Source of the DNA: a virus
Strand: one strand, 5' to 3'
Length of the DNA: 64,000 bases
Virus genome (UHGV): UHGV-1430452
Part shown: positions 1,047-31,048 of the stretch, one piece after another
Layout: each line of letters starts with the position of its first letter
Numbering within the stretch: position 1 is the first letter of the stretch
Notes under the pieces: generated by a model
Databases searched by the model: none
Told to the model about the DNA's origin: nothing
What the model saw: only the letters and a program-made list of their open reading frames with translations
Made by a program: the position numbers and the translations under genes

Positions 1047-1262
1047 TCATCTTTTTTTAGTAATCGGAATATTCAAATTCATACCACTCTCTTTCAAATC
1101 CTTACGGACATTATCGAATTCCTCTTTCCACTTATCAGTCCAGTCTCCGGCCTTTGTCTTTTCAGGTCTTGTGAACCTGATTTTAGACAGATCGCATCCC
1201 TTTTCTTTAAGTCCGTTTGCTACTTCGATAATTTCCTTAATAATTTTTCCATCAGTATTCAT
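1047..1262 (-). CDS. Hypothetical protein (71 aa)
   Basis: ORF track; AAAGGAGGAAT SD; preceded by box copy 1 and followed by a terminator. Confidence 0.65.
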   Translation of the reverse strand: MNTDGKIIKEIIEVANGLKEKGCDLSKIRFTRPEKTKAGDWTDKWKEEFDNVRKDLKESGMNLNIPITKKR

Positions 1263-4655: not shown

Positions 4656-4946
4656 CTATCGTAAAGATTTTGGGACAAGGCTTTTGATAATCTTTTTCTG
4701 ATGCTCGTCCAGATCGTGATATAGAGTGAAACCCGTTGCCCCATTATACTCATCGCCAAACTGTTTGTAGTACATAGATTGTTTCCATAACTCCGGATAC
4801 TCTTTTTTGTACTTTGCGAGTTCTTTTGCTTTCTTGTCATACTGTTTATCCGAAATTATATTATTATCTAACTCGTAATAAATATATGAATGAAGTATGA
4901 TATATCTTTGCAAGTAATCTATGTATTCGAGGGTTGTTAGTTCCAT
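4656..4946 (-). CDS. Stand-alone NAD-dependent DNA ligase domain-Ia-like protein (96 aa)
   Basis: LHSYIYYELDNNIISDKQYDKKAKELAKYKKEYPEL...FG follows the LigA N-terminal pattern H-x-Y-x-Y..D.P.IsD.eYD.L..EL..LE..yPEL....G. It overlaps the replicase stop by 10 nt. Confidence 0.5.
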   Translation of the reverse strand: MELTTLEYIDYLQRYIILHSYIYYELDNNIISDKQYDKKAKELAKYKKEYPELWKQSMYYKQFGDEYNGATGFTLYHDLDEHQKKIIKSLVPKSLR

Positions 4947-7900
4947 GGCAGCTCTACATCTTCATCATCGAATGGAATTTCCTCAGGAGATCCTTCCGGT
5001 ATGTTCATGAAGTCTGGTAAATGAGAATCTCTAAAAGGAGGTTCATGCCGATCTGAAGCATCCCAAGGCGGAGTACCAACATATGGATCGTCTGATATGA
5101 ACCACTCAGCGTCTCCGTATTGACCAATAGTTTCAAGAGCATCATCCACAAGCTTTCGATAATATGAACGATCAATATTTTCTTCATTTCCCGGAGACAT
5201 CATTAACTCGGATTCAAGCCAACGGAAACCAGTTGTTCCTGTAGCTGCATAATATTTACCGTTCTGTTCTCGCATCAATAGTCCTCCACCCTTTCCAGGC
5301 TTAACCGGACAAAATTGCCCAACTTTACCTACGAAATGATAGTCATGACCTTCAGCTATTAAATCGTTTAATCTTCGACACTCACTTTCGAAAGTTGTGT
5401 CCGATAACTTACCTTTCCTGTACTTATCTTCAAGTTTGGATAGTTCTTTTTCATACTCGGATACATCTGGAAGTTTTTCGTTCATATCCAAATATAAAGC
5501 AGATTTTACTGAGAATGCTTCGCACATATCTTTCAACTCAATTGGTTCTTTACTGAACAGTGTTTTAAATACATACGGAACTGCAAACTGTTTTCCAGTA
5601 GCTGTCCATTCTCCGGCATTCTTTCCATCTTTAAACCTAGCCACGTACACAGCATCATTTACTAAACAGAATTTTTCAAAGTTAGCCTCTGTTTCAAATG
5701 TATATCCGTATTCTTTACCGAATTTGGTTACGAAATCAATAATATCAGGAGTAGCATCGGGTATCTTTATGGAATCTGTCTTGATATGACAAACAGTAAA
5801 TCCTCGTTTCTGAACTTCTCTTTTCAATAATGTCATGAAGAGAGCTCCTCTTTTGGCAACAATGTTATCCTTATTTCTAGGATCTCTAAATTCATTTACG
5901 AAGCCAGCTGATGTCAAACCATAAATGGAATTGATAACAATCTTAAGTGCCTGCGCTAAATCAGCAGCCTGTTCTTCATTTAAGTATGGTTTCAACGCTC
6001 CACCTAATAATTGTCCAGCTGTTTCAAAGTCTTTATGCTTAATTGCAACACGAGCTTTTACAATATCCTCAAACCGTTTTGTATATTCTGGTCCAAATAG
6101 ACATTCGAATATAATACTGTGAGGATGCTGAGAAGCAATGTCTCCATCCCATACATTACCGTAATGCCCAGGTTCAGAGTAAACCCGACCGCCTTCTCCA
6201 ATGGCTTCGCCTAAATATGTTGATTTACCAAACTCAAAAGTATAGCCTTTAAAGAATGGAAGAATGCTATAACCTTCTGGAAGCTTTTCGCCAGGAACGT
6301 AAGATCGATATAATGGAAGACCCTCAGAATCAAATACTCTGAAATCATAATCATCTCCGAATTTAATTCTATATTCATCATAACGATCTGAGCTAACCGG
6401 TTCCGCCAAGTATCTATAGTTGAATACATTCTGCGGTTTTTTATTATTTCCAAATATAATTCTTTTAGAAAGAGTATTTGTCGTATCATTAACTGTAACG
6501 TTTGTAATATCATGTAAGAGTTTTACAAGATCAACCTGAATCTGTCTAGCAACAAAGTCTGCTTTTCTTGCATTGAATACAGCTTCCGTCGCAATGACAT
6601 CATTATCGCAATACTCAGCAACCTTTGCCCATAATTCTTCTGGAACTGGTTGATCCCAAGGAAGACCAAGCTCTTGATGATGAATACCCAGTTCAATCTC
6701 CCATTTCTTTAAACTCTGTTTCACAGTTGACATATCATATACATCAATGTAACCAAGATTATATGCCTCACCAAACATGCCATTATCACGGCTTCCCTTT
6801 GGAGCATTAATAATTCTTTGAGATAACTTATATATTTCCTCATTTGTGTATCCCATAAGTCTAGCATAAATGATATGTCTGTCGTATTTACGTCCATTAA
6901 AATCAACAAGTTTAAACTTTAGAAGATTTTCTATTTCTGCTGGTGTAGGATTAATTAATCTAACTACTGTTTTTCCTTCTCCAGCAAACTTATAGTTTAC
7001 CAAAAATAAATTTGGGAATACCTCACAATCATAGAATACAAGATCGTCAGTATCACCCTCATTACTTGTCTCTGAAGCCTCTTCACTCTTAAACGCCATC
7101 TGATTAACTAACTTCAAACACTCATCAGCCTGGTTACTACTACTCGCCGCCAAAGCAAATACAGCATTTTTCATATCAGACACATCATATCCAATACCAC
7201 TCTCATAAGCCTCATCCAAAAGTTTCTTAATCATTTGAATACTTGGAGCTGTGTTACCCATAATTTCTTTATTCAGATGTTTCTTAAGAACGGATCTCAA
7301 ATATTTCTCATTCTTAATACCATCAAAGTTAATCACATTTTTCACCTCTTTCAACGGAAGACCTGAGCTAATTGTACGAATAACAAGATTGACACACTTA
7401 GTAAGTTTTCTTCTAAGAGATGTTTTACCGGTAAATACCTTAATCTCGATATCCTCATCAAATATACGACTTAATTCACTCACATCACCGTTATAAATAT
7501 AATGAAGATGAATACCTCCACCACTTTTGCTTAACTCAGCATATGTTGGAGGCCATTTACTAGCTGCTTCAAGATTCTTCTCGAAACATTTATTACCATT
7601 CTCGTCCTTAATATCAAAGTCAATAACTACATGATTTTCAGGGACCTTGACGTAATGAAGTTTTGATGTGTCAAGTTCTGATAGGGTAGTTGAAACTTCA
7701 TCCCATGGCTTCGTCGGAGTTTCTTTTGAAGTAGCATATTGAGCTGGACAATCAGAACATTCTTTATCAAAAATAGACTCCTGTTCTTCAAATATAAGCC
7801 AGCTCTCAGTTTTCTCATCTCCAATAGGTTTCTCTGCTTTAACCTTTTTCTTCCCACCAATAGAGTCTTCGAAAATATCAGTCTTAAAACCGTCGTAATA

Positions 7901-9163
7901 ACTCAGCAGCTTACTTCCATCTTCTTTCTCCACCTTCTCATCAAATTCCAAAAAATAGTTTCTCAACTCGTCTTTGAATTTTGTCTTAGAAAATGGATAC
8001 GGCACTTTTGCTTCCTCACAGTAGTTTTTATACATCTCCCATGCTGCTTTTAGCGTAGTACCATCTTCTTTCTTGAAGACACTGAATGAATCACATACGA
8101 AGTTATAAAAGTCATTAGAAGCCATAAGCATGTCCTTCGGAGCGTAAGTATCGTAATACTCTGGATCTTCTTTAAAGACTTGTAAACAATGATATGCGAT
8201 TGCTCCCAACTCAAAATCAACCTGTTTGGTCAATCTACGATATTCTCGAATCGGTATCTTGTTTCCAGTAGGACGAACGTCAATCAAACGCCTTAGTAAA
8301 CCAGACTTAGCATCAGTGATCTTAACAGGTGTGTTTGTACCCATAAATAAAAAACATTTGAATCTTGTTTCATATTGTCCTTTAAATTTTTCATTCATGG
8401 TCATTATCTCGTGTGAAATCACCGAGTTTAAGCGCGTATTATCTTCGATTTTTGATAAATCACCATCATGTTGTATCGCTACAAGAGGGTTATTCTTAAA
8501 CGGTTCCAGAGCGAAAACATTATTCGGATTACCCAAAGCTTTTGCGTCAAAAGAACAACAATATCCTTCAAATAATTTCTCGATAATATTTATGATAGTT
8601 GATTTACCAGTACCACCAGCTCCGTAAAGCACCAGGAACTTTTGAAGTATTTTTGATTCCCCAGATACAACGGAGCCGATAGCCCATTCTATTTTACGTC
8701 GTTCTTCTTCGGAATATAGAGTACCGATGAGTTTATCCCATGCAGAAATATCGCCAGGTTCGAGAGGATACGGGAGTCTCTTGCTTGCGAAATTCTCTCT
8801 GCTTAATTCTGTGTTTGAAAATATAAGTTCATCATCGAGTACAGCAAAGTTATCACGCATCTGTTTCTGACAATATTTATGGAACTTATCGATTGAGCCA
8901 CTGTCAGCATCCCACATATACTTAATTACAGGAGTACCTTCAAGACGTCCTTCATTTTCAGCGACATATCTATCAAGTTCTCTATCTACAAGACGGGTTA
9001 CATCGTCTTCATCTGTACTCCACATCTTTCGATCTTCATCCCAGATAGCGTAAAAGTCCCTACCTCGAATCATGAGATCTTTAGATTTCAACATTTTGAA
9101 CTTAGGAGAAACATCAACACTGCTTTTATTCGTCTTCGTTGATACTGTCATGAAGTCCAACAT
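4937..9163 (-). CDS. Replicase polyprotein: SF3 (D5/P4-type) helicase + prim-pol primase + 3'-5' exonuclease/family-B DNA polymerase (1408 aa)
   Basis: Walker A GAGGTGKS (nt 8600..8623). Prim-pol motifs VVIDFD (7613..7630) and GGGIHLHY (7499..7522). Exo motifs FYDCEVF, FNGRKYD, YCDNDV. PolB motifs DIASQHPHS, KIVINSIYG (5918..5944) and IKTDS (5771..5782). Confidence 0.85.
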   Translation of the reverse strand: MLDFMTVSTKTNKSSVDVSPKFKMLKSKDLMIRGRDFYAIWDEDRKMWSTDEDDVTRLVDRELDRYVAENEGRLEGTPVIKYMWDADSGSIDKFHKYCQKQMRDNFAVLDDELIFSNTELSRENFASKRLPYPLEPGDISAWDKLIGTLYSEEERRKIEWAIGSVVSGESKILQKFLVLYGAGGTGKSTIINIIEKLFEGYCCSFDAKALGNPNNVFALEPFKNNPLVAIQHDGDLSKIEDNTRLNSVISHEIMTMNEKFKGQYETRFKCFLFMGTNTPVKITDAKSGLLRRLIDVRPTGNKIPIREYRRLTKQVDFELGAIAYHCLQVFKEDPEYYDTYAPKDMLMASNDFYNFVCDSFSVFKKEDGTTLKAAWEMYKNYCEEAKVPYPFSKTKFKDELRNYFLEFDEKVEKEDGSKLLSYYDGFKTDIFEDSIGGKKKVKAEKPIGDEKTESWLIFEEQESIFDKECSDCPAQYATSKETPTKPWDEVSTTLSELDTSKLHYVKVPENHVVIDFDIKDENGNKCFEKNLEAASKWPPTYAELSKSGGGIHLHYIYNGDVSELSRIFDEDIEIKVFTGKTSLRRKLTKCVNLVIRTISSGLPLKEVKNVINFDGIKNEKYLRSVLKKHLNKEIMGNTAPSIQMIKKLLDEAYESGIGYDVSDMKNAVFALAASSSNQADECLKLVNQMAFKSEEASETSNEGDTDDLVFYDCEVFPNLFLVNYKFAGEGKTVVRLINPTPAEIENLLKFKLVDFNGRKYDRHIIYARLMGYTNEEIYKLSQRIINAPKGSRDNGMFGEAYNLGYIDVYDMSTVKQSLKKWEIELGIHHQELGLPWDQPVPEELWAKVAEYCDNDVIATEAVFNARKADFVARQIQVDLVKLLHDITNVTVNDTTNTLSKRIIFGNNKKPQNVFNYRYLAEPVSSDRYDEYRIKFGDDYDFRVFDSEGLPLYRSYVPGEKLPEGYSILPFFKGYTFEFGKSTYLGEAIGEGGRVYSEPGHYGNVWDGDIASQHPHSIIFECLFGPEYTKRFEDIVKARVAIKHKDFETAGQLLGGALKPYLNEEQAADLAQALKIVINSIYGLTSAGFVNEFRDPRNKDNIVAKRGALFMTLLKREVQKRGFTVCHIKTDSIKIPDATPDIIDFVTKFGKEYGYTFETEANFEKFCLVNDAVYVARFKDGKNAGEWTATGKQFAVPYVFKTLFSKEPIELKDMCEAFSVKSALYLDMNEKLPDVSEYEKELSKLEDKYRKGKLSDTTFESECRRLNDLIAEGHDYHFVGKVGQFCPVKPGKGGGLLMREQNGKYYAATGTTGFRWLESELMMSPGNEENIDRSYYRKLVDDALETIGQYGDAEWFISDDPYVGTPPWDASDRHEPPFRDSHLPDFMNIPEGSPEEIPFDDEDVELPWN

Positions 9164-9374
9164 TCATCTTATGGCCTCCTTTCATTTTTTTAATATATGA
9201 TTCTAATGTTTCATAGCACCAGTCATAAAAATTATGGTAAGTAAAAACAAAATCCGAGCCGCTTTTTATGCGAACTCGGACACTATCTTTACCGTTGGGG
9301 AACCAGTCTTCTACATGAATTGCAATTTCCGGAAATTGTTTGCTAAATTGTTTATATACATCTTCGTGCTTCAT
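9126..9374 (-). CDS. Hypothetical protein (82 aa)
   Basis: ORF track; overlaps the replicase start region. Confidence 0.55.
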   Translation of the reverse strand: MKHEDVYKQFSKQFPEIAIHVEDWFPNGKDSVRVRIKSGSDFVFTYHNFYDWCYETLESYIKKMKGGHKMNVGLHDSINEDE

Positions 9375-9383
9375 ATCTTACCT

Positions 9384-9938
9384 CTAAACAAAAGTATCTA
9401 AATACCATAACATTTGAATCCAGATTTCAAATTTACGTAAGTCATGATCGCAATTCTTAACTCTGAATAATCCACCGCGGCCGTCGGGTTCATATTCACG
9501 TTTGAGAAATGTGTTGATCACTTCTCTAACATACTTTTTATCAAACCTGGAATCATACATACCGCCCAAACCGAGATTTACGATCATCTTCCAGAACCAT
9601 TGTCCTGTTCTATCGCCGACACTCGGATCGTCCATAATATCTTCGCAACGAATTGCAAGAGCTATTATCATTTCTAGGATACTACATGGACGAGATAACA
9701 TATCGACGATAACTTCTCGGCTTTCAGGGCTGTATATTTCATAAGCAAACCGACTTCTCAGATTTTCTCCGTCAGTTTCTCTGTTCTCATCTTTTGGGAT
9801 GCTGTATCTGAATTCAATCTCATGTAAATATTCCAAAAGCTTTTTATATGAATTTGCTTTGGCATATCTACCACTGCATACCAGATTATACATCCACTCG
9901 AAATATTCTATCTCAATTTCAGTCCTCGTCACCGCCAA
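9384..9938 (-). CDS. Hypothetical protein (184 aa)
   Basis: ORF track; no family recognised. Confidence 0.6.
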   Translation of the reverse strand: MAVTRTEIEIEYFEWMYNLVCSGRYAKANSYKKLLEYLHEIEFRYSIPKDENRETDGENLRSRFAYEIYSPESREVIVDMLSRPCSILEMIIALAIRCEDIMDDPSVGDRTGQWFWKMIVNLGLGGMYDSRFDKKYVREVINTFLKREYEPDGRGGLFRVKNCDHDLRKFEIWIQMLWYLDTFV

Positions 9939-10512
9939 CTACCTCGCTGTAACTTCCGTAATCTCTAAGGATTTCGTAATATGACTTAAAATTAGGATTT
10001 TTGATATACACAGTATCGTCTTCATACTCTCCGAAATGGGAAGCGAAATCCTCTCCTACCATCTCGTCAATATTACCAATTATTCTGTCACGTTCATCCG
10101 CGAGCACTCCATCACCTTCATAATATGTCAGAGTGATCATCGGATAATCCTGCTCCCATGTCTCTTCTGGAGCAATTACTTCAGGTCCGCCCATGTCATC
10201 TGCTTCCTCCTTTTCTTTCTCTTTCATAGCCTGCTCGTTAATATAACCGAGCTCCTGTACTTTATCTCTGATTTCCTGAACAGTAAGTTTATCCGGATTT
10301 TCAATACCATCTTTTAAACCTTCCGTTAAAGCCTCTCCAACTTTTTTACAAGCTTTGCTCTCAGAATAGCGATCCCTAAGGAATTCATTCTCTTCGGTTT
10401 TGTCAGCAATGATCTGCTCGTACTTGGTTTTAACTAACTTCCATGTTACTACCGAACCGATTGCACCTCCAGCTAAGAATATCATTCCTTTAATTAATAA
10501 ATTCTTGTTCAT
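9919..10512 (-). CDS. N-terminally membrane-anchored acidic protein (197 aa)
   Basis: ORF track; hydrophobic segment IFLAGGAIGSVVTW followed by a Glu/Asp-rich body. Confidence 0.6.
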   Translation of the reverse strand: MNKNLLIKGMIFLAGGAIGSVVTWKLVKTKYEQIIADKTEENEFLRDRYSESKACKKVGEALTEGLKDGIENPDKLTVQEIRDKVQELGYINEQAMKEKEKEEADDMGGPEVIAPEETWEQDYPMITLTYYEGDGVLADERDRIIGNIDEMVGEDFASHFGEYEDDTVYIKNPNFKSYYEILRDYGSYSEVVGGDED

Positions 10513-23288: not shown

Positions 23289-23296
23289 CAATTTAT

Positions 23297-23325
23297 TTGC
23301 ATATATGCGATTTTGTGTGTATCAT
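23297..23325 (+). promoter_or_regulatory. Candidate rightward (repressor) promoter; the -35 overlaps the palindrome GCATATATGC (23299..23308)
   Basis: TTGCAT (23297..23302), a 17-nt spacer ending TGTG, then TATCAT (23320..23325). Confidence 0.5.
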
Positions 23326-23397: not shown

Positions 23398-23994
23398 ATG
23401 ACAATAGGACAAAAAATAAAAGAATTACGCAATCAACTTAATATGTCGGTGGATGATCTTGCTGTGAAACTGGGTAAGAACCGTGCGACTATCTACCGCT
23501 ATGAACGAGGAGATATCGAGAACCTCCCTCTCGATGTACTAGAACCATTAGCAAATGCTCTTGAGACCACACCTGGTTATTTAATGGGATGGGAAGAAAC
23601 TACGAAAAAGAAAGAGCCTTCAATTATCGATGAAGTTACCATGGGTGACGTTTTTAAAGCGTTACGTCTAGGAAGTAATTTATCGATAGAGGAATTTTCG
23701 CATGAGATTGGATTATCTGCCCAAGACATAAGCAATTATGAAGCAGGAAAGACTCCTATACCTGTAAATATAATTAATCTTGTTGCTGATTTCTTTGGCA
23801 TATCAATAGCGGAAATAGTTAAGGCACACAAAAACAGCGAAAATAGAACGCCTTCTGGTTTCGAAATGAAAAAGGAACGATTTGAACGTTTTAAAGTTTG
23901 GAATAAAGAGTTTGGACGAATACATTTTACTGATGAAGAAATCAATAAAATAATGGAATATACAAGGTTCTTACTTAGCCAAAGAAGACAGTAA
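23398..23994 (+). CDS. CI-like repressor with two XRE-type HTH domains and no S24 peptidase domain
   Basis: IGQKIKELRNQLNMSVDDLAVKLGKNRATIYRYERG and FKALRLGSNLSIEEFSHEIGLSAQDISNYEAG are both HTH_XRE-like. The C-terminus is short and lacks Ser/Lys protease motifs. Confidence 0.75.
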   Translation: MTIGQKIKELRNQLNMSVDDLAVKLGKNRATIYRYERGDIENLPLDVLEPLANALETTPGYLMGWEETTKKKEPSIIDEVTMGDVFKALRLGSNLSIEEFSHEIGLSAQDISNYEAGKTPIPVNIINLVADFFGISIAEIVKAHKNSENRTPSGFEMKKERFERFKVWNKEFGRIHFTDEEINKIMEYTRFLLSQRRQ

Positions 23995-24079
23995 GTCTAC
24001 ATAGGTTTACTCTATTTAAAGGAGGTGATGCCTGAATTCAGTTCATCGTAGAATTTACATCAAAGGAAAGGTGGAACCA

Positions 24080-25657
24080 ATGACAACGTTTGATATGAAC
24101 AACGCTGTAGACAATGCGTTCGGTATGGACGTATATGCTATCTATCTTCGGAAAAGTCGAGCCGATGTAGAAGCAGAAAAACTTGGAGAAGGAGAAACAC
24201 TAGCAAGGCATAGAAAGATACTAACAGAACTTGCTGCTAGAAAAGGATTGTATATCGGTAAGATTTACGAGGAAATTGTATCTGGTGAAACAATCGAAGC
24301 TAGACCTGAAATACAAAAACTGATAGAAGATTGTTATAAAGGGAAATATAGAGGAATCCTAATAGTAGAAGTTACTCGTCTATCTCGTGGTAATCAAGGA
24401 GACGCTCAAAAAATACTCGACTGTCTCAAATATTCGAATAGAAACAATGGTGTATTAGTTATCACTCCTACTAAGACTTATGACGTTGCACACAGCCAAG
24501 AAGACGAAGAATATATGGAGTTTGAATTGTTTATGTCTCGTCGAGAATATAAGATGATTCAAAAGCGTATGGATCGTGGCCGTAAACAAGCAGTCGTAGA
24601 AGGAAACTTCATGGGTAGTTACCGTCCCTATGGATATGACATCTTAAAAACCAAGACCGGACGAACACTTATACCGAATGAAGATGAAGCTCCTATCGTG
24701 AAAATGATTTACGAATGGACAGTTAACGATAATTTATCTCCTTTCAAGATAGCTGAGCGTTTAACTAATATGGGTGTTCCTACTTATTATGGTGAGAAGG
24801 ATTGGTCTAAAGAAACAGTTAAAACCATTTTGACGAATCAGACATACATGGGTAAAGTTCGTTGGAATGATCGAATGACTGTTAAGACTATGGTCGACGG
24901 AGAACTTAAAGCTACACGACCTCGTTCAAATCATTCCGATCACTTCATGCTATATGATGGAAAACATATGAAACACGCACTCGTCGACGAAGAAACATTC
25001 AAAGCAGCCTCCTCTCGCTTTCATAACGATAGGACAAGATCAAATCTAAAACTTGTTAATCCTCTTGCAGGACTTCTATTTTGTAAGAAATGTGGTAAAT
25101 CTATGGGTTATCAATCATATAGACATAAGAAAAACGGACCAATGGATCGATACAATCATAGACAGTCTGCTAATGGATGCAAGGTTAAGTCAGCAGTTGC
25201 TGAGGATGTTATAAAAGCTGTTATACATGCTTTGAAACTTTATATAGAAGATTTCGAATTTAAGTTAGACAACACTCCAGATGTTGACGAAAATTCAATC
25301 AATACGCAGCTCGAAGCTTTACAAAAAGAAATACGAAAATCCGAACGAAAACTTGCTAAGCTATTCGATTCTTGGGAAGATGAGAAGATAACAGATAATG
25401 AATTTGTTCAAAGGAAAGCCGTCCATAATCAGAAGATAGAAAATATAAAGAGGCAAATGGAAGAACTCGAATATTCGATACCAGAAAGAGAAGAATATGA
25501 GGATAAAATAATATTGCTGTCTGAAGCACTTGTCGCTATCACAGACGAATCGCTTGACGCAGATATTAAGAACGAGTATCTTAAAAGAATCATTGATAGA
25601 ATAGAGTTTAGTAGAGAGAATAACTCAGAGTTTATACTAGATATAGACTTATGCTAA
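24080..25657 (+). CDS. int: Large serine recombinase (integrase)
   Basis: YAIYLRKSRAD (catalytic Ser), VTRLSRG, a recombinase domain, the zinc ribbon CKKCGK...C and a C-terminal coiled coil. ATG at 24080 after AAAGGAAAGGTGG (the ORF-track GTG is at 24071). Confidence 0.85.
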   Translation: MTTFDMNNAVDNAFGMDVYAIYLRKSRADVEAEKLGEGETLARHRKILTELAARKGLYIGKIYEEIVSGETIEARPEIQKLIEDCYKGKYRGILIVEVTRLSRGNQGDAQKILDCLKYSNRNNGVLVITPTKTYDVAHSQEDEEYMEFELFMSRREYKMIQKRMDRGRKQAVVEGNFMGSYRPYGYDILKTKTGRTLIPNEDEAPIVKMIYEWTVNDNLSPFKIAERLTNMGVPTYYGEKDWSKETVKTILTNQTYMGKVRWNDRMTVKTMVDGELKATRPRSNHSDHFMLYDGKHMKHALVDEETFKAASSRFHNDRTRSNLKLVNPLAGLLFCKKCGKSMGYQSYRHKKNGPMDRYNHRQSANGCKVKSAVAEDVIKAVIHALKLYIEDFEFKLDNTPDVDENSINTQLEALQKEIRKSERKLAKLFDSWEDEKITDNEFVQRKAVHNQKIENIKRQMEELEYSIPEREEYEDKIILLSEALVAITDESLDADIKNEYLKRIIDRIEFSRENNSEFILDIDLC

Positions 25658-25680: not shown

Positions 25681-25711
25681 ACCTGCACTAAAATGGTGTA
25701 GGTAACTTTTT
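25681..25711 (+). terminator. Intrinsic terminator after the integrase
   Basis: ACCTGCAC-taaaatg-GTGTAGGT followed by AACTTTTT. Confidence 0.55.
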
Positions 25712-25718
25712 CCCCGAC

Positions 25719-25766
25719 ATATATATCATGGTTGTGTTTCTTTTATATCGCCACCATGATATATAT
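25719..25766. repeat. 14-bp perfect inverted repeat ATATATATCATGGT / ACCATGATATATAT with a 20-bp spacer (attP or operator candidate)
   Basis: Read directly. ATATATC-like words recur five times between 25719 and 25812. The palindrome TTGATATATCAA lies at 25789..25800. Confidence 0.5.
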
Positions 25767-25813
25767 CACAGGGAAACTATTCTAAACGTTGATATATCAA
25801 GGAGGAGATATAC

Positions 25814-26065
25814 ATGAGAATAGTATGGAAAGACAGTGCGCCTAAAACAAAACCTTGGTTGACGTTCAAATATAGAGAACATATCGTTAGCCAATATGGA
25901 GATGGATGGATTACCGATATACCTGGTGATAACAATATCTATTTTCCGAGAGAGTGTGCTTATAATGCAATCGATAAGTCTCTAGGTGGAAAGACACGAA
26001 AAGCTAATCCTCAAAGACATAAATTAGGAATAAAAGTTATTGGTAGAAAGGACGATGTATCATGA
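25814..26065 (+). CDS. Hypothetical protein, tandem paralogue A (83 aa, MRIVWKDS...)
   Basis: ORF track; GGAGGAGATATAC SD. It shares MRIVWKDS, GW...I.GDNN.Y, A.NAID and G(I/K)..IG.K.D with the next gene. Confidence 0.65.
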   Translation: MRIVWKDSAPKTKPWLTFKYREHIVSQYGDGWITDIPGDNNIYFPRECAYNAIDKSLGGKTRKANPQRHKLGIKVIGRKDDVS

Positions 26066-26313
26066 GAATCGTATGGAAAGATAGTCATAAGCCAAAAGAA
26101 TATGAACCTATGAAATATCGAAATATTTACATCTTCGGTACTCCTGAAGGATGGGAAGTAAATATAAAAGGAGATAATAATCTATACAAGACTCATTACT
26201 GTGCTATGAATGCGATTGATGATTACTTTGGAGATTTTGGAGAACGTGGTACAGAAAAACGTAAACGATATGGAATACAAATAATAGGTAAGAAAAATGA
26301 TGAGACTGCATGA
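26062..26313 (+). CDS. Hypothetical protein, tandem paralogue B (83 aa, MRIVWKDS...)
   Basis: ORF track; its start overlaps the previous stop (ATGA). Confidence 0.65.
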   Translation: MRIVWKDSHKPKEYEPMKYRNIYIFGTPEGWEVNIKGDNNLYKTHYCAMNAIDDYFGDFGERGTEKRKRYGIQIIGKKNDETA

Positions 26314-26322
26314 ATCTCAAAA

Positions 26323-26356
26323 GCCACTTCCTTTTCTGGAGGTGGCATATTTTTAT
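26323..26356. terminator. Bidirectional intrinsic terminator between convergent genes
   Basis: GCCACTTCC-ttttct-GGAGGTGGC with a T-run on the plus side (ATATTTTTAT) and TTTTGAG on the minus side. Confidence 0.6.
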
Positions 26357-26361
26357 CTAGG

Positions 26362-26904
26362 TTAGACATTTCTATTTTCGTATGACGTAAATTTTACATT
26401 TGTGTACTCGTTAACCAAAAAGCTACATGCTTCATTAACTGTTTTAACGACGGATTCCCCTTCTATATAACTCTGATAATTCCTTCTTTGATTTTCAAAT
26501 TTAAGATCAGGTTCAACCATGGTATCTACACTTAACCATATTAGTTCCGTAGTATAGTCTTCGGTAAAATATCCTTTTATAAAAACCTCTTTCTTTCCAA
26601 CCGTTCCGATTAGTTTTATAAACGACATATCATGCTTCGTCAGATTAAACGCATATCTTATTCCTTTTACATATTGCCCGCCAAGTTTCCTCGACTTAAT
26701 TGTTTCATAGTAATTATCTTTATTGTTGTTCTTTTTATGCCACTCATCCGATATACAAATCCACATTAAAAGTTCGCTTAAAGTTGCAACCATGGATATG
26801 CTATTTTGTTTGTCGCTTGTGCTTAAATATTCATGAAATCTTTTATGAGATTCTCTTAATCCATGGTTTATATACATTAGCCTAAATTCTTCGACACTAT
26901 TCAT
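26362..26904 (-). CDS. Hypothetical stand-alone protein in the int-proximal moron position (180-183 aa)
   Basis: ORF track 26362..26913. The ATG at 26904 is better spaced from AAAGGAGGA. It is bracketed by terminators. No family recognised. Confidence 0.6.
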   Translation of the reverse strand: MNSVEEFRLMYINHGLRESHKRFHEYLSTSDKQNSISMVATLSELLMWICISDEWHKKNNNKDNYYETIKSRKLGGQYVKGIRYAFNLTKHDMSFIKLIGTVGKKEVFIKGYFTEDYTTELIWLSVDTMVEPDLKFENQRRNYQSYIEGESVVKTVNEACSFLVNEYTNVKFTSYENRNV

Positions 26905-26969
26905 TATCTGCATTCCTCCTTTTATCGTAATATTCGACCATATAGGAGAAATTTCCTTTTAACCATATG

Positions 26970-27002
26970 AAGAAAAATAAAAGGGGCTGTTTTATTCGCC
27001 CC
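26970..27002 (-). terminator. Intrinsic terminator ending the late (lysis) operon
   Basis: Minus strand: GGGGC-gaataaaaca-GCCCC followed by TTTTATTTTT. Confidence 0.7.
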
Positions 27003-27009
27003 AATTATT

Positions 27010-27318
27010 TTACATCTTGTGTGAAATCTCCTCGCAATGCTTTTCCAATGATTTGATTCGTTCTTCGTGACCCTGATTTTGAATTTTCAGCTCGTCTATT
27101 TCAGATCCATGATTCGTAACCCGAGTCTTCAAGTTATTAATCATCTCGGTCAAGAAGTTTATAGTCGCGTTGAGTTTGATTATGTTTTCGTTTAGCTTTT
27201 CGATAGGCTCATTTTTAGAATGTTCTTCCTGAGTAATATCCTTCCTCAGTTTCATATAGAAAGCGAACACTGAGCCTATGACTGTTAAGACAATGATTAT
27301 AACTTGATTCTCTGCCAT
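27010..27318 (-). CDS. XhlA-like membrane/coiled-coil lysis accessory protein
   Basis: It has an N-terminal TM (VIIIVLTVIGSVFAFYM) and a heptad coiled coil, and sits directly downstream of the holin. Confidence 0.5.
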   Translation of the reverse strand: MAENQVIIIVLTVIGSVFAFYMKLRKDITQEEHSKNEPIEKLNENIIKLNATINFLTEMINNLKTRVTNHGSEIDELKIQNQGHEERIKSLEKHCEEISHKM

Positions 27319-27320
27319 AG

Positions 27321-27614
27321 TTATTTTTCCTTCGCTGTATTATTATCGTCTTTCTTACCTTCTACAAATCTACTAAATCCCTGATGTAGACCTGTAGATG
27401 CCAGACCCATAACTGCACCATATACGATGGAATCGACAGAGATGCCGCTTACTGCCGTATTCAATGCTGCGCCGACAACAGCCAGGATGACTGGAATATC
27501 GTCGTTAGGGATACGTTTTAAAAAAGTCGCATGTTTGATGATATATCCAACCACCAGACAAGCGACCATTACTACAAGTACGAAATGTTCAGTTAAAATT
27601 TTTGCGAAATCCAT
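27321..27614 (-). CDS. Holin (97 aa; hydrophobic segments plus a charged C-terminus)
   Basis: Hydrophobic segments HFVLVVMVACLVVGYII, IPVILAVVGAALNTAV and IVYGAVMGLASTGL, then KKDDNNTAKEK. It lies at the end of the tail-fibre cluster. Confidence 0.7.
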   Translation of the reverse strand: MDFAKILTEHFVLVVMVACLVVGYIIKHATFLKRIPNDDIPVILAVVGAALNTAVSGISVDSIVYGAVMGLASTGLHQGFSRFVEGKKDDNNTAKEK

Positions 27615-28290: not shown

Positions 28291-28626
28291 TTAAACATCA
28301 ACAGCCCCCGTATAGGAAGGCTGAGTTTTTAACCAATCGTATGCATTTTGAATTAGATCGCCTATAAGTAGTTTCTGAGCCTCATCCCATTCAATGCTAA
28401 GATAATCCATGTTGGTGTATGGAAAAGATGGCTCTCCTATGATTCTACCAGCCATATAATCCTTATCGTATTGACGACCTTCTTTATCAATGTACGATTC
28501 TACAATAATAGTAGCTCGCTGATTAATTTCTACGTTAATGGCGGCAATATGATGATAGCTTACTACTACACCATTAGCGGTTTTAATGTTTACTTCTATA
28601 GCCAAAATATCACTCCTAAACTCCAA
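28291..28626 (-). CDS. Putative tail-fibre assembly/chaperone-like protein, paralogue of 31069..31350
   Basis: Both small genes sit directly after a fibre gene. They share ..YH.I..I......I.V.SYID......AY.(W/Y)LKT.P.(Y/F).GA.D(V/I) at the C-terminus. Confidence 0.45.
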   Translation of the reverse strand: MEFRSDILAIEVNIKTANGVVVSYHHIAAINVEINQRATIIVESYIDKEGRQYDKDYMAGRIIGEPSFPYTNMDYLSIEWDEAQKLLIGDLIQNAYDWLKTQPSYTGAVDV

Positions 28627-31048
28627 TTACTTGTCTAAGAACAAACCTGTTATTGGTATAAGCAACTCCATTGTTTCCCTGTCCGGTATAGTTATTTTCA
28701 ACCCCACCGGTGAGTTTGCCATCAGATATGTTCAATACTTTAACACTCGCATATCCGCAAACTTCAGACATAAGCGTGAAACACCACGGTTTTCCTGAGT
28801 ATGTAGAAACAGCGCTTTTAGGCACGAAGAAGCTATGTAATCTTGTATTAGTAGCAGACCCATTATAATAGTCAGAGAATATCAATACGATTCCATGAGG
28901 TTGATTTGATACAGGGCTACTAAAAGTTATGGTATGAGTATTACTCGGCCATAAACTTCCGGTCCATAGTGTATTATTTGTAAACCTTTCGGTAACTGAA
29001 CCTCTTACAAAGCCATTATCAGCAGTAAACGTCATAGCAGTTCTGATACTGTGAGGGGAATATGAATCTGTTGGGGTCATGAGAAAATAATTTTCGCTAC
29101 TCCCATCAACTTTTCTAGCAAACATTTTTACTGTAGGACTGACTCCTCCTCTATCCCCTTTAACGCTAACATAAGAAGCCACACCATCGTGTGACTCAAA
29201 ATTTGCTAACATATCAGCAATATCTGCTCTTAATACCACGCGATACTCTCCATCATAGCGGCTAGTGTAAATTGTTTCAGTAGTTGAGGCAGCATTAGCT
29301 TCGTATGTAATGATTGGATCATCATCATCTTCGAAATAAACGAGAACATCGTCTGTAAATGCTTCATCGTTTTCGATGACTAAAGTACCTTTTACAGTAG
29401 ATATCTTACCTCTACCGTTATTCATGGATATTACTGTATTATCTGAATTTTTCCCGAGATCTATTAACGATTCACCAAAAGTAGCCAACTCAGTAATTCC
29501 GTTTCTCATTTCGATGTCTGTACTACTAATAAGAATATTTCTGCCAAGAGTTGATGTTCTCTTATCAGCAACCATAAGTCCATTAGCATCGAAACCGAGG
29601 AAGTTTGTAGCGGTTTTAGCAGCTTCTACAGCCTGACCATAAGGATCAATCCAGCTACTCCATGTTGAAGTTGAAGTTCCAACACGCCAATATTCTTTTC
29701 CAGTACCTTCGACTTTGGCTGTCTGTCTCGGATATCCTCCGCTAGTATCTTTGTACGGCATATCAGTTCGTAAATGACAGTAAGTCCCTACTCCAGACAA
29801 TCCTATAGTAGAACAATACTTGAATTCGGCAACTGATGTACTAGGATAATTATTTATGTAATATAGCGGCGGGTAATTCGAATTTTTGGTATCTTTTACG
29901 TCAAGTCCGTCGCCTTTTGGTCCTTGTGGTCCAGTAGGTCCTTGTGGTCCTGTTGCGCCTGTACTACCAGTTTCTCCTCGTGGTCCAGTAGGTCCTTGTG
30001 GTCCAGTGGCTCCTGTGGCTCCGGTGTTACCAGTAATACATACACCATTAGATGATGGAGTATATGATGTAGTGTTGTCTGTGTACGTTACCAGTGTTCT
30101 TCTCCAAATATACTTTCCATCAGCCCACGTAGGTTGACTCGTACTCCATGATCCACCTGTTAATGTTGTCGGGGAATTGGATGAATAGAACTGTTCTTGT
30201 GTACTTTTTATGGTAGAACCCAGTGTTACGCTCAATCCATTAGCAGTCTGTTCTAGAGTAGAGACCTCGCCTTCCAAATCTGTTACTTTCGAACTTAAAC
30301 CACTGGCAGTCTGTTCTACCGTACTAACCCTGTTTCCAAGAGAAGTAGTTTCCTGTACATTTGCTTCTATTCTGTCAGCATTTTGATCGATACTGGATTT
30401 AGCGTTTGTTAGATCTGTAGTGAGCTTCGATACATCCGAAGTTAAGCCATCAGCAGTCTGTTCAAGCGTGCTTGTCCTGACACCTAATTCATTTGTGGCG
30501 TTCACATTTGCTGTAATACGTTCTCTTTCTATGTTCAGATCAGCTTCGTACTCCGTTCTGAGGTCATTCACGGCTTCCCATGAACTATCACAAACTGGGC
30601 TTGTGTATGCATTTGACGTTGGGTTCTTATACGTAATGAGATATCTCGTCCATAAATACATACCAGTAGACCAGGTAGGCATGGAAGTTACCCATGACCC
30701 GCCTGTCTGTGTTGTTTTGGAAGTGCTTAAATAATATTGCTGAGTGATGCTATCAATGCCAGTACCAGTAGGACCCTGAGATCCTGTTGCCCCGTCGGTT
30801 CCATTCTTAGGTATGTAAGATACTGAATATGTTGTAGATGTATCACCCTCTGTATATGTAATGACGGTTCTGCTCCACAAATACTGTCCAGGTGATACAG
30901 AGGGGATTGTCGTACTCCATGTACCGTTTGGAGGATTTGTGCCTGACGTACCAGCCTGATAAGTTATGACTGTGGATGTAATTCCCTTGCCGTCTATTCC
31001 GTCTATAATGTCCGAGATAGTAACCTCGGCTTTAGCTATCACAGCCAA
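28616..31048 (-). CDS. Tail fibre protein with three W..(S/T)..P...YLW.R modules, coiled-coil segments and a collagen-like G-X-Y tract
   Basis: GTWSTTIPSVSPGQYLWSR, GSWVTSMPTWSTGMYLWTR and GSWSTSQPTWADGKYIWRR; G-X-Y run GNTGATGATGPQGPTGPRGETGSTGATGPQGPTGPQGPKGDG. Confidence 0.75.
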   Translation of the reverse strand: MAVIAKAEVTISDIIDGIDGKGITSTVITYQAGTSGTNPPNGTWSTTIPSVSPGQYLWSRTVITYTEGDTSTTYSVSYIPKNGTDGATGSQGPTGTGIDSITQQYYLSTSKTTQTGGSWVTSMPTWSTGMYLWTRYLITYKNPTSNAYTSPVCDSSWEAVNDLRTEYEADLNIERERITANVNATNELGVRTSTLEQTADGLTSDVSKLTTDLTNAKSSIDQNADRIEANVQETTSLGNRVSTVEQTASGLSSKVTDLEGEVSTLEQTANGLSVTLGSTIKSTQEQFYSSNSPTTLTGGSWSTSQPTWADGKYIWRRTLVTYTDNTTSYTPSSNGVCITGNTGATGATGPQGPTGPRGETGSTGATGPQGPTGPQGPKGDGLDVKDTKNSNYPPLYYINNYPSTSVAEFKYCSTIGLSGVGTYCHLRTDMPYKDTSGGYPRQTAKVEGTGKEYWRVGTSTSTWSSWIDPYGQAVEAAKTATNFLGFDANGLMVADKRTSTLGRNILISSTDIEMRNGITELATFGESLIDLGKNSDNTVISMNNGRGKISTVKGTLVIENDEAFTDDVLVYFEDDDDPIITYEANAASTTETIYTSRYDGEYRVVLRADIADMLANFESHDGVASYVSVKGDRGGVSPTVKMFARKVDGSSENYFLMTPTDSYSPHSIRTAMTFTADNGFVRGSVTERFTNNTLWTGSLWPSNTHTITFSSPVSNQPHGIVLIFSDYYNGSATNTRLHSFFVPKSAVSTYSGKPWCFTLMSEVCGYASVKVLNISDGKLTGGVENNYTGQGNNGVAYTNNRFVLRQVIGV
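29903..30036 (-). repeat. Collagen-like G-X-Y coding tract inside the 810-aa fibre
   Basis: The plus strand shows repeated ggtcc/tggtcc periodicity. Translation gives about 14 G-X-Y triplets. Confidence 0.8.

Follow-up and report, generated by a model that had tools for sequence, protein, structure and literature searches.

In the prophage SPbeta of Bacillus subtilis, the integrase gene sprA is found at one prophage end and the 58-aa gene sprB at the other, and each adjoins half of the host gene that the prophage splits; sprB has its own promoter near the start codon and is conserved in all SPbeta-like elements (PMC4191935, PMC5499854). The att core of SPbeta is located inside a coding sequence (PMC5499854). 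Recombination directionality factors (RDFs) of serine integrases, of which SprB is one, have no common sequence or fold (PMC12286644, PMC11795197). Fewer than 30 are known, they cannot be found by homology and they "often lack synteny" (PMC11795197). Here, we analysed positions 25,814 to 27,009 and their surroundings in the virus genome UHGV-1430452, a stretch of 64,000 nucleotides to which we refer as the window. The region carries two tandem 83-aa genes, A and B, whose products start with MRIVWKDS, and an open reading frame (ORF) on the other strand, ORF183. It comprises two unrelated things, namely an integration module consisting of int, its terminator, attP, A and B, and the passenger ORF183. 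A and B may be cofactors of the integrase, most likely its RDF(s), a reading to which we assign a probability of about 0.4. Our principal outcome is that the locus is re-read as int, attP and candidate cofactor genes, with attP and the host site attB in exoA defined by sequence. The features of the integration module and its borders are as follows.

23398..23994, plus strand: repressor-like gene with two helix-turn-helix (HTH) domains (Pfam HTH_3 in two stretches, E 4e-24)
24071..25657, plus strand: int, large serine integrase, 528 aa (Pfam Resolvase, Recombinase and Zn_ribbon_recom; phrog_95 integrase, E 1e-91)
25681..25703, plus strand: int terminator, hairpin and T-run (terminator scan; -13.2 kcal/mol, z -3.0)
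25709..25776, no strand: attP of the serine integrase, inverted repeat with arms 25709..25732 and 25753..25776 and central TT 25742..25743
25789..25800, no strand: 12-bp perfect palindrome TTGATATATCAA, directly adjoining the gene A ribosome-binding site
25814..26065, plus strand: gene A, MRIVWKDS family, 83 aa, net basic (ORF list, homologues)
26062..26313, plus strand: gene B, paralogue of A, 83 aa (ORF list, homologues)
26323..26346, both strands: bidirectional terminator hairpin in the gap separating B from ORF183 (-17.6 kcal/mol, z -4.1 on plus; -12.9 kcal/mol, z -2.8 on minus)

The gap between int and gene A measures 156 bp and holds the int terminator followed by a 68-bp imperfect palindrome with 24-nt arms that are 88% complementary, a 20-nt spacer and a z of -7 when folded. 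An equivalent terminator hairpin with altered stem bases is visible by eye in relatives. The palindrome recurs in close relatives and aligns with their attP sites. Judged by sequence, this palindrome serves the large serine integrase as attP, with the crossover at the TT in positions 25742-25743. In support of this, the integrase has the three domains of its class, and both prophage junctions could be read from a single 48-kb IMG/VR provirus contig. Its left end, attL (locus L025, ~1150..1230), consists of a 3' remnant of host exoA, the junction, an A-like gene and a B-like gene, and its right end, attR (L110, ~4900..5000), of an integrase 70% identical to that of the window, the junction and the 5' part of host exoA. 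Aligned on the central TT, the two are exact attP/attB hybrids. Put together, the phage halves give a palindromic attP resembling that of the window, and the host halves give an attB that, read on its reverse strand, encodes EKPVLLCGDLNVAHQEIDLKN, the catalytic motif (CGDLNVAH) of the host exodeoxyribonuclease III, ExoA. A second lysogen junction of the attL type (L026) has host TrkH/TrkA and hydrolase genes 5' of the exoA remnant, and everything upstream of attL runs on the opposite strand.

We are thus highly confident that the integrase targets host exoA at the CGDLNVAH codons and that A and B lie just inside attL in the lysogen, at the end opposite int. Literature searches returned no paper on a serine integrase targeting exodeoxyribonuclease III. 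With the central TT of attP at 25742-25743, the window shows the excised form of the phage. Since attP separates int from A, integration moves A and B to the other prophage end, ~70 nt inside attL and a whole prophage length away from int. The sequence-only reading of this DNA had overlooked the attP palindrome, which changes the interpretation: its description of A and B as integrase-proximal applies to the excised genome only. Genes annotated as lying next to int can be genes of the other prophage end.

Two surveys addressed the neighbourhood of A and B. Starting from the gene family, 53 loci were inspected, 13 from lookups and 40 viral loci. The first family gene was always preceded by int and attP, by int, a 3' copy of exoA and attP, by attL without int, by a contig end or by a deletion, the latter in three loci (L015, L022, L032) in which the stretch from the repressor gene to int is removed and the break lies inside attP or inside A. 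Starting from the integrase, 45 loci qualified by an enzyme identity of 57% or more and a downstream flank of 1.4 kb or longer, some of them near-duplicates. A family gene followed attP directly in 40 of these; four had a mini-ORF of 20-31 aa in place of a full gene, and the remaining one is the attR locus L110, whose A/B pair stands at the other end of the same contig. Among int homologues of 57-98% identity, the same att site was always next in line, and the repressor-like gene with its two HTH domains is kept 5' of int in relatives. No family gene was found beside integrases of 32-35% identity or in phages that share the early-gene backbone and encode a different recombinase of 455-458 aa. 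The strict linkage and the absence beside other integrases therefore show that the family is tied to one integrase/attP lineage, not to the lysis cassette or to ORF183. No other genes accompany this integrase clade and its attP as constantly as A and B, as expected of an RDF co-inherited with its cognate integrase; contrary to the accessory role assumed before, they are not variable cargo.

The products of A and B are 42% identical (BLASTP E 7e-21), which substantiates the paralogy proposed earlier, and the stop codon of A overlaps the start codon of B in the ATGA at 26062..26065, again as previously described. The MRIVWKDS family is small: it forms at least 299 clusters at 90% identity, and a set of 1.84 billion representatives contains only 93 at 50% identity, almost all of which are stand-alone proteins 70-90 aa long. 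The family divides into A-type and B-type subfamilies, which many relatives carry as a tandem pair. Conservation is highest in the N-terminal octapeptide MR[IV]VW[KR]D[ST], which is invariant and is kept at the protein level despite synonymous change, with all six arginine codons in use at position 2. The AlphaFold2 model of A (predicted local distance difference test score 72) has a four-stranded sheet and a helix, and the octapeptide is disordered in it; the C-terminal third is rich in lysine and arginine. Neither protein matched Pfam, PHROGs, PADLOC or NCBIfam, and profile searches of the PDB with the families of A/B and ORF183 returned nothing real. The MRIVWKDS string was not found in literature searches. 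In a tblastn search of deposited phage records the sole match was one unannotated phage from a human faecal metagenome, found with B, and megablast of 6 kb against these records gave no match. In the genome collection there was one locus only, in a metagenome-assembled genome. As A, B and ORF183 are each kept as ORFs in diverged relatives, the three ORFs listed in the sequence-only reading are real genes.

Strict synteny is the main argument for the RDF reading. The integrase and the small genes flank attP in the excised form and lie at opposite ends in the integrated form, each next to part of the interrupted host gene with the att core within its protein-coding sequence, which is also the arrangement of sprA and sprB. 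Like sprB, the small genes are conserved across related elements and would need a promoter of their own, which for sprB lies near the start codon. The differences are that SprB has no sequence or fold similarity to A/B, that two tandem 83-aa paralogues are present in many of our phages instead of a single 58-aa protein, that the target is exoA here and spsM in SPbeta, and that RDF activity has been shown for SprB and is inferred for A/B. A and B have no homology to any known RDF, and such homology does not strictly define the class; because the known serine-integrase RDFs share neither sequence nor fold, its lack is not evidence against RDF function. Some small serine-integrase RDFs are encoded next to int. 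The RDFs phiRv1 Xis, phiJoe gp52, TP901-1 Orf7 and A118 Gp44 are likewise small phage proteins, each belonging to one integrase lineage and without homology between lineages (PMC12286644, PMC11795197), none of them carrying the MRIVWKDS motif. The synteny of A/B with int is much stricter than usual for RDFs (PMC11795197). A PHROG scan of 20 small early ORFs revealed no annotated excisionase or RDF, which is uninformative because such factors are rarely annotated. If RDF function holds, A and B join an already known kind of protein.

By analogy with SprB and SprA, A and/or B would bind the integrase, permit excision by attL x attR recombination and block re-integration. The octapeptide might serve as the integrase docking motif, being the most conserved part of the protein and yet disordered in the model, as would fit a docking peptide. 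Only 20-60 nt lie between the right arm of attP (P-right) and gene A with its ribosome-binding site, and in several relatives only ~10 nt lie between this arm and the ribosome-binding site. Given such a short gap, the promoter of A would be expected to overlap attP/attL, so that integrase occupancy or the recombination state could gate expression. The surroundings of the genes lead to the same place. On the excised genome the int terminator and attP precede A, and after integration an antisense exoA remnant lies 5' of the pair; the promoter must therefore overlap attP/attL, or else A and B rely on read-through from the repressor gene and int, which is possible on the excised circle only. For the same reason the previous suggestion that A and B are expressed in the lysogen, drawn from their co-orientation with int and the repressor gene, does not follow: a conserved terminator and attP intervene, and all that lies upstream of the L026 junction is on the other strand. 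A more far-reaching version, which we regard as doubtful, is that MRIVWKDS proteins are a new RDF family hard-wired to the att site, with an att-gated promoter, docking through the octapeptide and A and B acting as a pair.

Several observations weigh against an RDF role. A/B genes are missing beside integrases of 43-44% identity whose attP is similar (L111, L112), and four loci retain only mini-ORFs of 20-31 aa. Two paralogues occur in some phages and one in others, for no obvious reason. The search for a consensus promoter of A/B gave none, and the proteins resemble no solved structure, the SPbeta RDF complexes possibly being among those compared. Finally, A is net basic and its weak fold matches include DNA-binding beta-sheet/helix domains, which fits a DNA-binding regulator as well. 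The mini-ORFs comprise 31 aa (MRVVWKDSAQLANKQVKKEVKKVDKKNSKTA) or 20 aa (MRIVWQDTNPKVKKPKNKTA) and keep only MR[IV]VW[KQ]D[ST] and a lysine-rich tail (L078 ~4670..4770, L102, and L083/L084 ~4675..4740); use of the octapeptide for docking would explain their persistence. As RDF candidates, A and B are strictly syntenic, the sequences of both attP and attB are in hand, and the integrase comes in natural variants of 57-98% identity. If confirmed as RDFs, they would be ready-made material for reversible genome-engineering switches.

The third gene, ORF183, belongs to the other side of the region, for which the following features were recorded.

26362..26913, minus strand: ORF183, rare predicted helical-bundle protein, variable late-region passenger
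26973..27002, minus strand: weak late terminator 3' of the lysis genes and 5' of ORF183 (five-pair G+C stem and T-run, -12.8 kcal/mol, z -1.9)
27010..27318, minus strand: XhlA-like coiled-coil membrane protein at the end of the lysis cassette (weak XhlA/SlyX matches)
27321..27614, minus strand: holin (Pfam Phage_holin_5_2, E 1e-11; phrog_1129 holin, E 1e-21)

ORF183 likely starts at the ATG at 26904, its fourth codon, and thus encodes 180 aa, because homologues start there and an AGGAGG lies ~11 nt upstream. Its family counts 22 proteins among 5.8 billion clusters. At 92% identity it is present only in the closest relatives (L002-L004, L006); in L008 and L014-L020 the slot between B and the holin gene contains other small genes or almost nothing. 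Homologues of 54-66% identity (L054-L057) are the last gene of the lysis operon, beside a different recombinase, and those of ~30% identity lie between Sipho_Gp37-like tail-fibre genes and the holin gene in a Lysinibacillus prophage (L124) and a siphophage (L127). All of them are co-oriented with the late genes. ORF183 is thus a passenger in its own right, placed last in the late/lysis transcription unit, opposed in orientation to int, A and B, as the sequence-only reading stated, and in line with the late operon, as it did not. The two terminators on either side of ORF183 do exist, 26323..26346 folding on both strands and 26973..27002 forming a minus-strand hairpin with a T-run. The insulation and separate promoter deduced from them are plausible at best, given a weak late terminator and a promoter scan that gave no consensus match before ORF183. 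ORF183 did not match PADLOC, Pfam or NCBIfam, hit only phrog_30856 (unknown function) weakly among the PHROGs, and found nothing by tblastn in deposited phage records.

Tentatively, ORF183 could be a late-expressed accessory of the virion or of lysis, for instance a tail-fibre or lysis helper, made by read-through of the late terminator and not a lysogeny gene. It shares the orientation of the late operon, the terminator upstream is weak (z -1.9) with no promoter to be found behind it, and the positions of the homologues, at the end of the lysis operon in L054-L057 and between tail-fibre and holin genes in L124 and L127, fit such a role. However, the gene is absent from most close relatives, which share the lysis genes and have similar late genes, and a family of 22 proteins is unlike a core structural or lysis component. 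Also on the minus strand, an 810-aa tail-fibre-like ORF (28616..31048) shows collagen-like Gly-X-Y runs (GATGATGPQGPTGPRGETG...) in translation.

We also considered ORF183 as a HEPN toxin and rejected this assignment. In searches with the predicted helical bundle, HEPN toxins (SO_3166, PDB 5yep; HEPN/MNT, 7ae2) score no better than p130Cas, vinculin or designed proteins, and no HEPN Pfam model matches the sequence. The Rx4-6H motif of these toxins is missing: the local arrangement is R86-x7-H94, in which distant homologues have K or L instead of R86. Only A88, N90, K93 and H94 do not vary; H94, the only conserved histidine, is preceded by N90 and K93. Unlike HEPN toxins, ORF183 has no partner antitoxin gene and has an extra beta/alpha unit at the C-terminus.

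For A and B, we consider it unlikely that they are small sequence-specific DNA-binding regulators, perhaps a heterodimer, acting on the palindrome TTGATATATCAA or on attP/attL. Such regulators would control transcription at the prophage end or modulate int/att use, and would not be classical protein-binding RDFs. The net basic charge of A, its lysine- and arginine-rich C-terminal third and the modelled four-stranded sheet with a helix are compatible with DNA binding, and tandem paralogues would suit a heterodimer. Moreover, the perfect palindrome that adjoins the ribosome-binding site of A occurs just once in the window and is seen again in relatives. On the other hand, many relatives that keep the gene lack the palindrome (L008, L014, L017, L020), and none of 38 family members matches a DNA-binding family in Pfam. 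An AP2-like or integrase-type beta-sheet DNA-binding domain was examined and discarded, as neither structure nor profile comparison showed significant similarity, an hhalign run with an AP2 domain sequence gave no match and the Pfam scan of the members was negative, too.

The palindrome TTGATATATCAA (25789..25800) resembles the attP arms, and a similar element occupies the same place in L004, L016, L048, L069, L071 and L074. It is the sole exact copy in the window, and there is none in the repressor/early switch region. Possibly, it is an operator or an extra integrase half-site. The divergent region between the repressor and early genes has a 10-bp perfect palindrome of its own, GCATATATGC (23290..23310), which shares only the ATATAT core with that of gene A and may be an operator.

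The previous proposal, in which the three genes make up a lysogenic-conversion island that the lysogen expresses for superinfection exclusion or anti-phage defence, is improbable: the position beside the att site and the end of the lysis operon, the variability of ORF183 among close relatives and the separate transcription unit of A and B, closed by a strong terminator, speak for it, but none of the three matches PADLOC-DB models (at E<=1), Pfam or NCBIfam, A and B are conserved with one integrase clade and absent when the integrase module differs, inspection of their sequences by eye (no predictor was run) showed no membrane-spanning stretch, the HEPN motif is missing from ORF183, whose R86 is not conserved, while unrelated bundles score as well as HEPN toxins, and the gene layout does not imply expression in the lysogen. 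What stands of the island is the variable slot of ORF183, present in L002-L004 and L006 and not in L008 or L014-L020, and not the A/B pair, which does not vary in this way within the integrase clade.

Returning to the integration site, the gene whose catalytic motif these uncultured phages interrupt is one for DNA repair. In many relatives a 131-134-aa 3' copy of exoA stands between int and attP, in frame through attP (L010 1794..2198; also L021, L024, L029-31, L033-34, L044-45, L087-92, L096-100, L106 and L110). In L110, attR joins the 5' part from the host to the phage copy in a continuous ExoA ORF of 270 aa with a duplication of ~22 aa. The phage of the window has no such copy, and the reverse strand of its left attP arm (P-left) reads KETQP-stop; integration should therefore truncate ExoA. 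Repair of the ORF in some relatives and not in the phage of the window could affect mutation or repair phenotypes of the host. A link of A and B to ExoA function, such as modulation of repair, was considered and set aside, as nothing beyond location speaks for it.

In "active lysogeny", prophages such as SPbeta in spsM and a Listeria phage in comK reside within a conserved coding sequence (PMC5499854, PMC7397523). Similarly, excision from the catalytic motif of exoA would restore the gene. In contrast to these prophages, the exoA 3' copy of many relatives rebuilds a full-length ORF at attR, which the phage of the window, having no copy, would not do.

Several rearrangements were seen around attP. 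In L002, int and gene A are separated by a 4.8-kb island (5165..10000) with an att-like site at either border, the first composed of P-left, TT and a variant P-right and the second of an exoA 3' remnant, TT and P-right. A third MRIVWKDS paralogue (5307..5555) is the first gene of the island, which also contains DUF7211 among further small genes and looks like a product of recombination at the att core. In L015 (~7950..8000), L022 (8001) and L032 (8001), the repressor gene, int and part of attP or of A are lost and B is intact; these may be non-lysogenic deletion derivatives. In three predicted proteins (P0192, P0146 and P0217), fragments of the integrase or of DUF7211 are fused to the C-terminal half of a MRIVWKDS protein, and these fusions are probably deletion joints or assembly chimeras at a recombination-prone locus.
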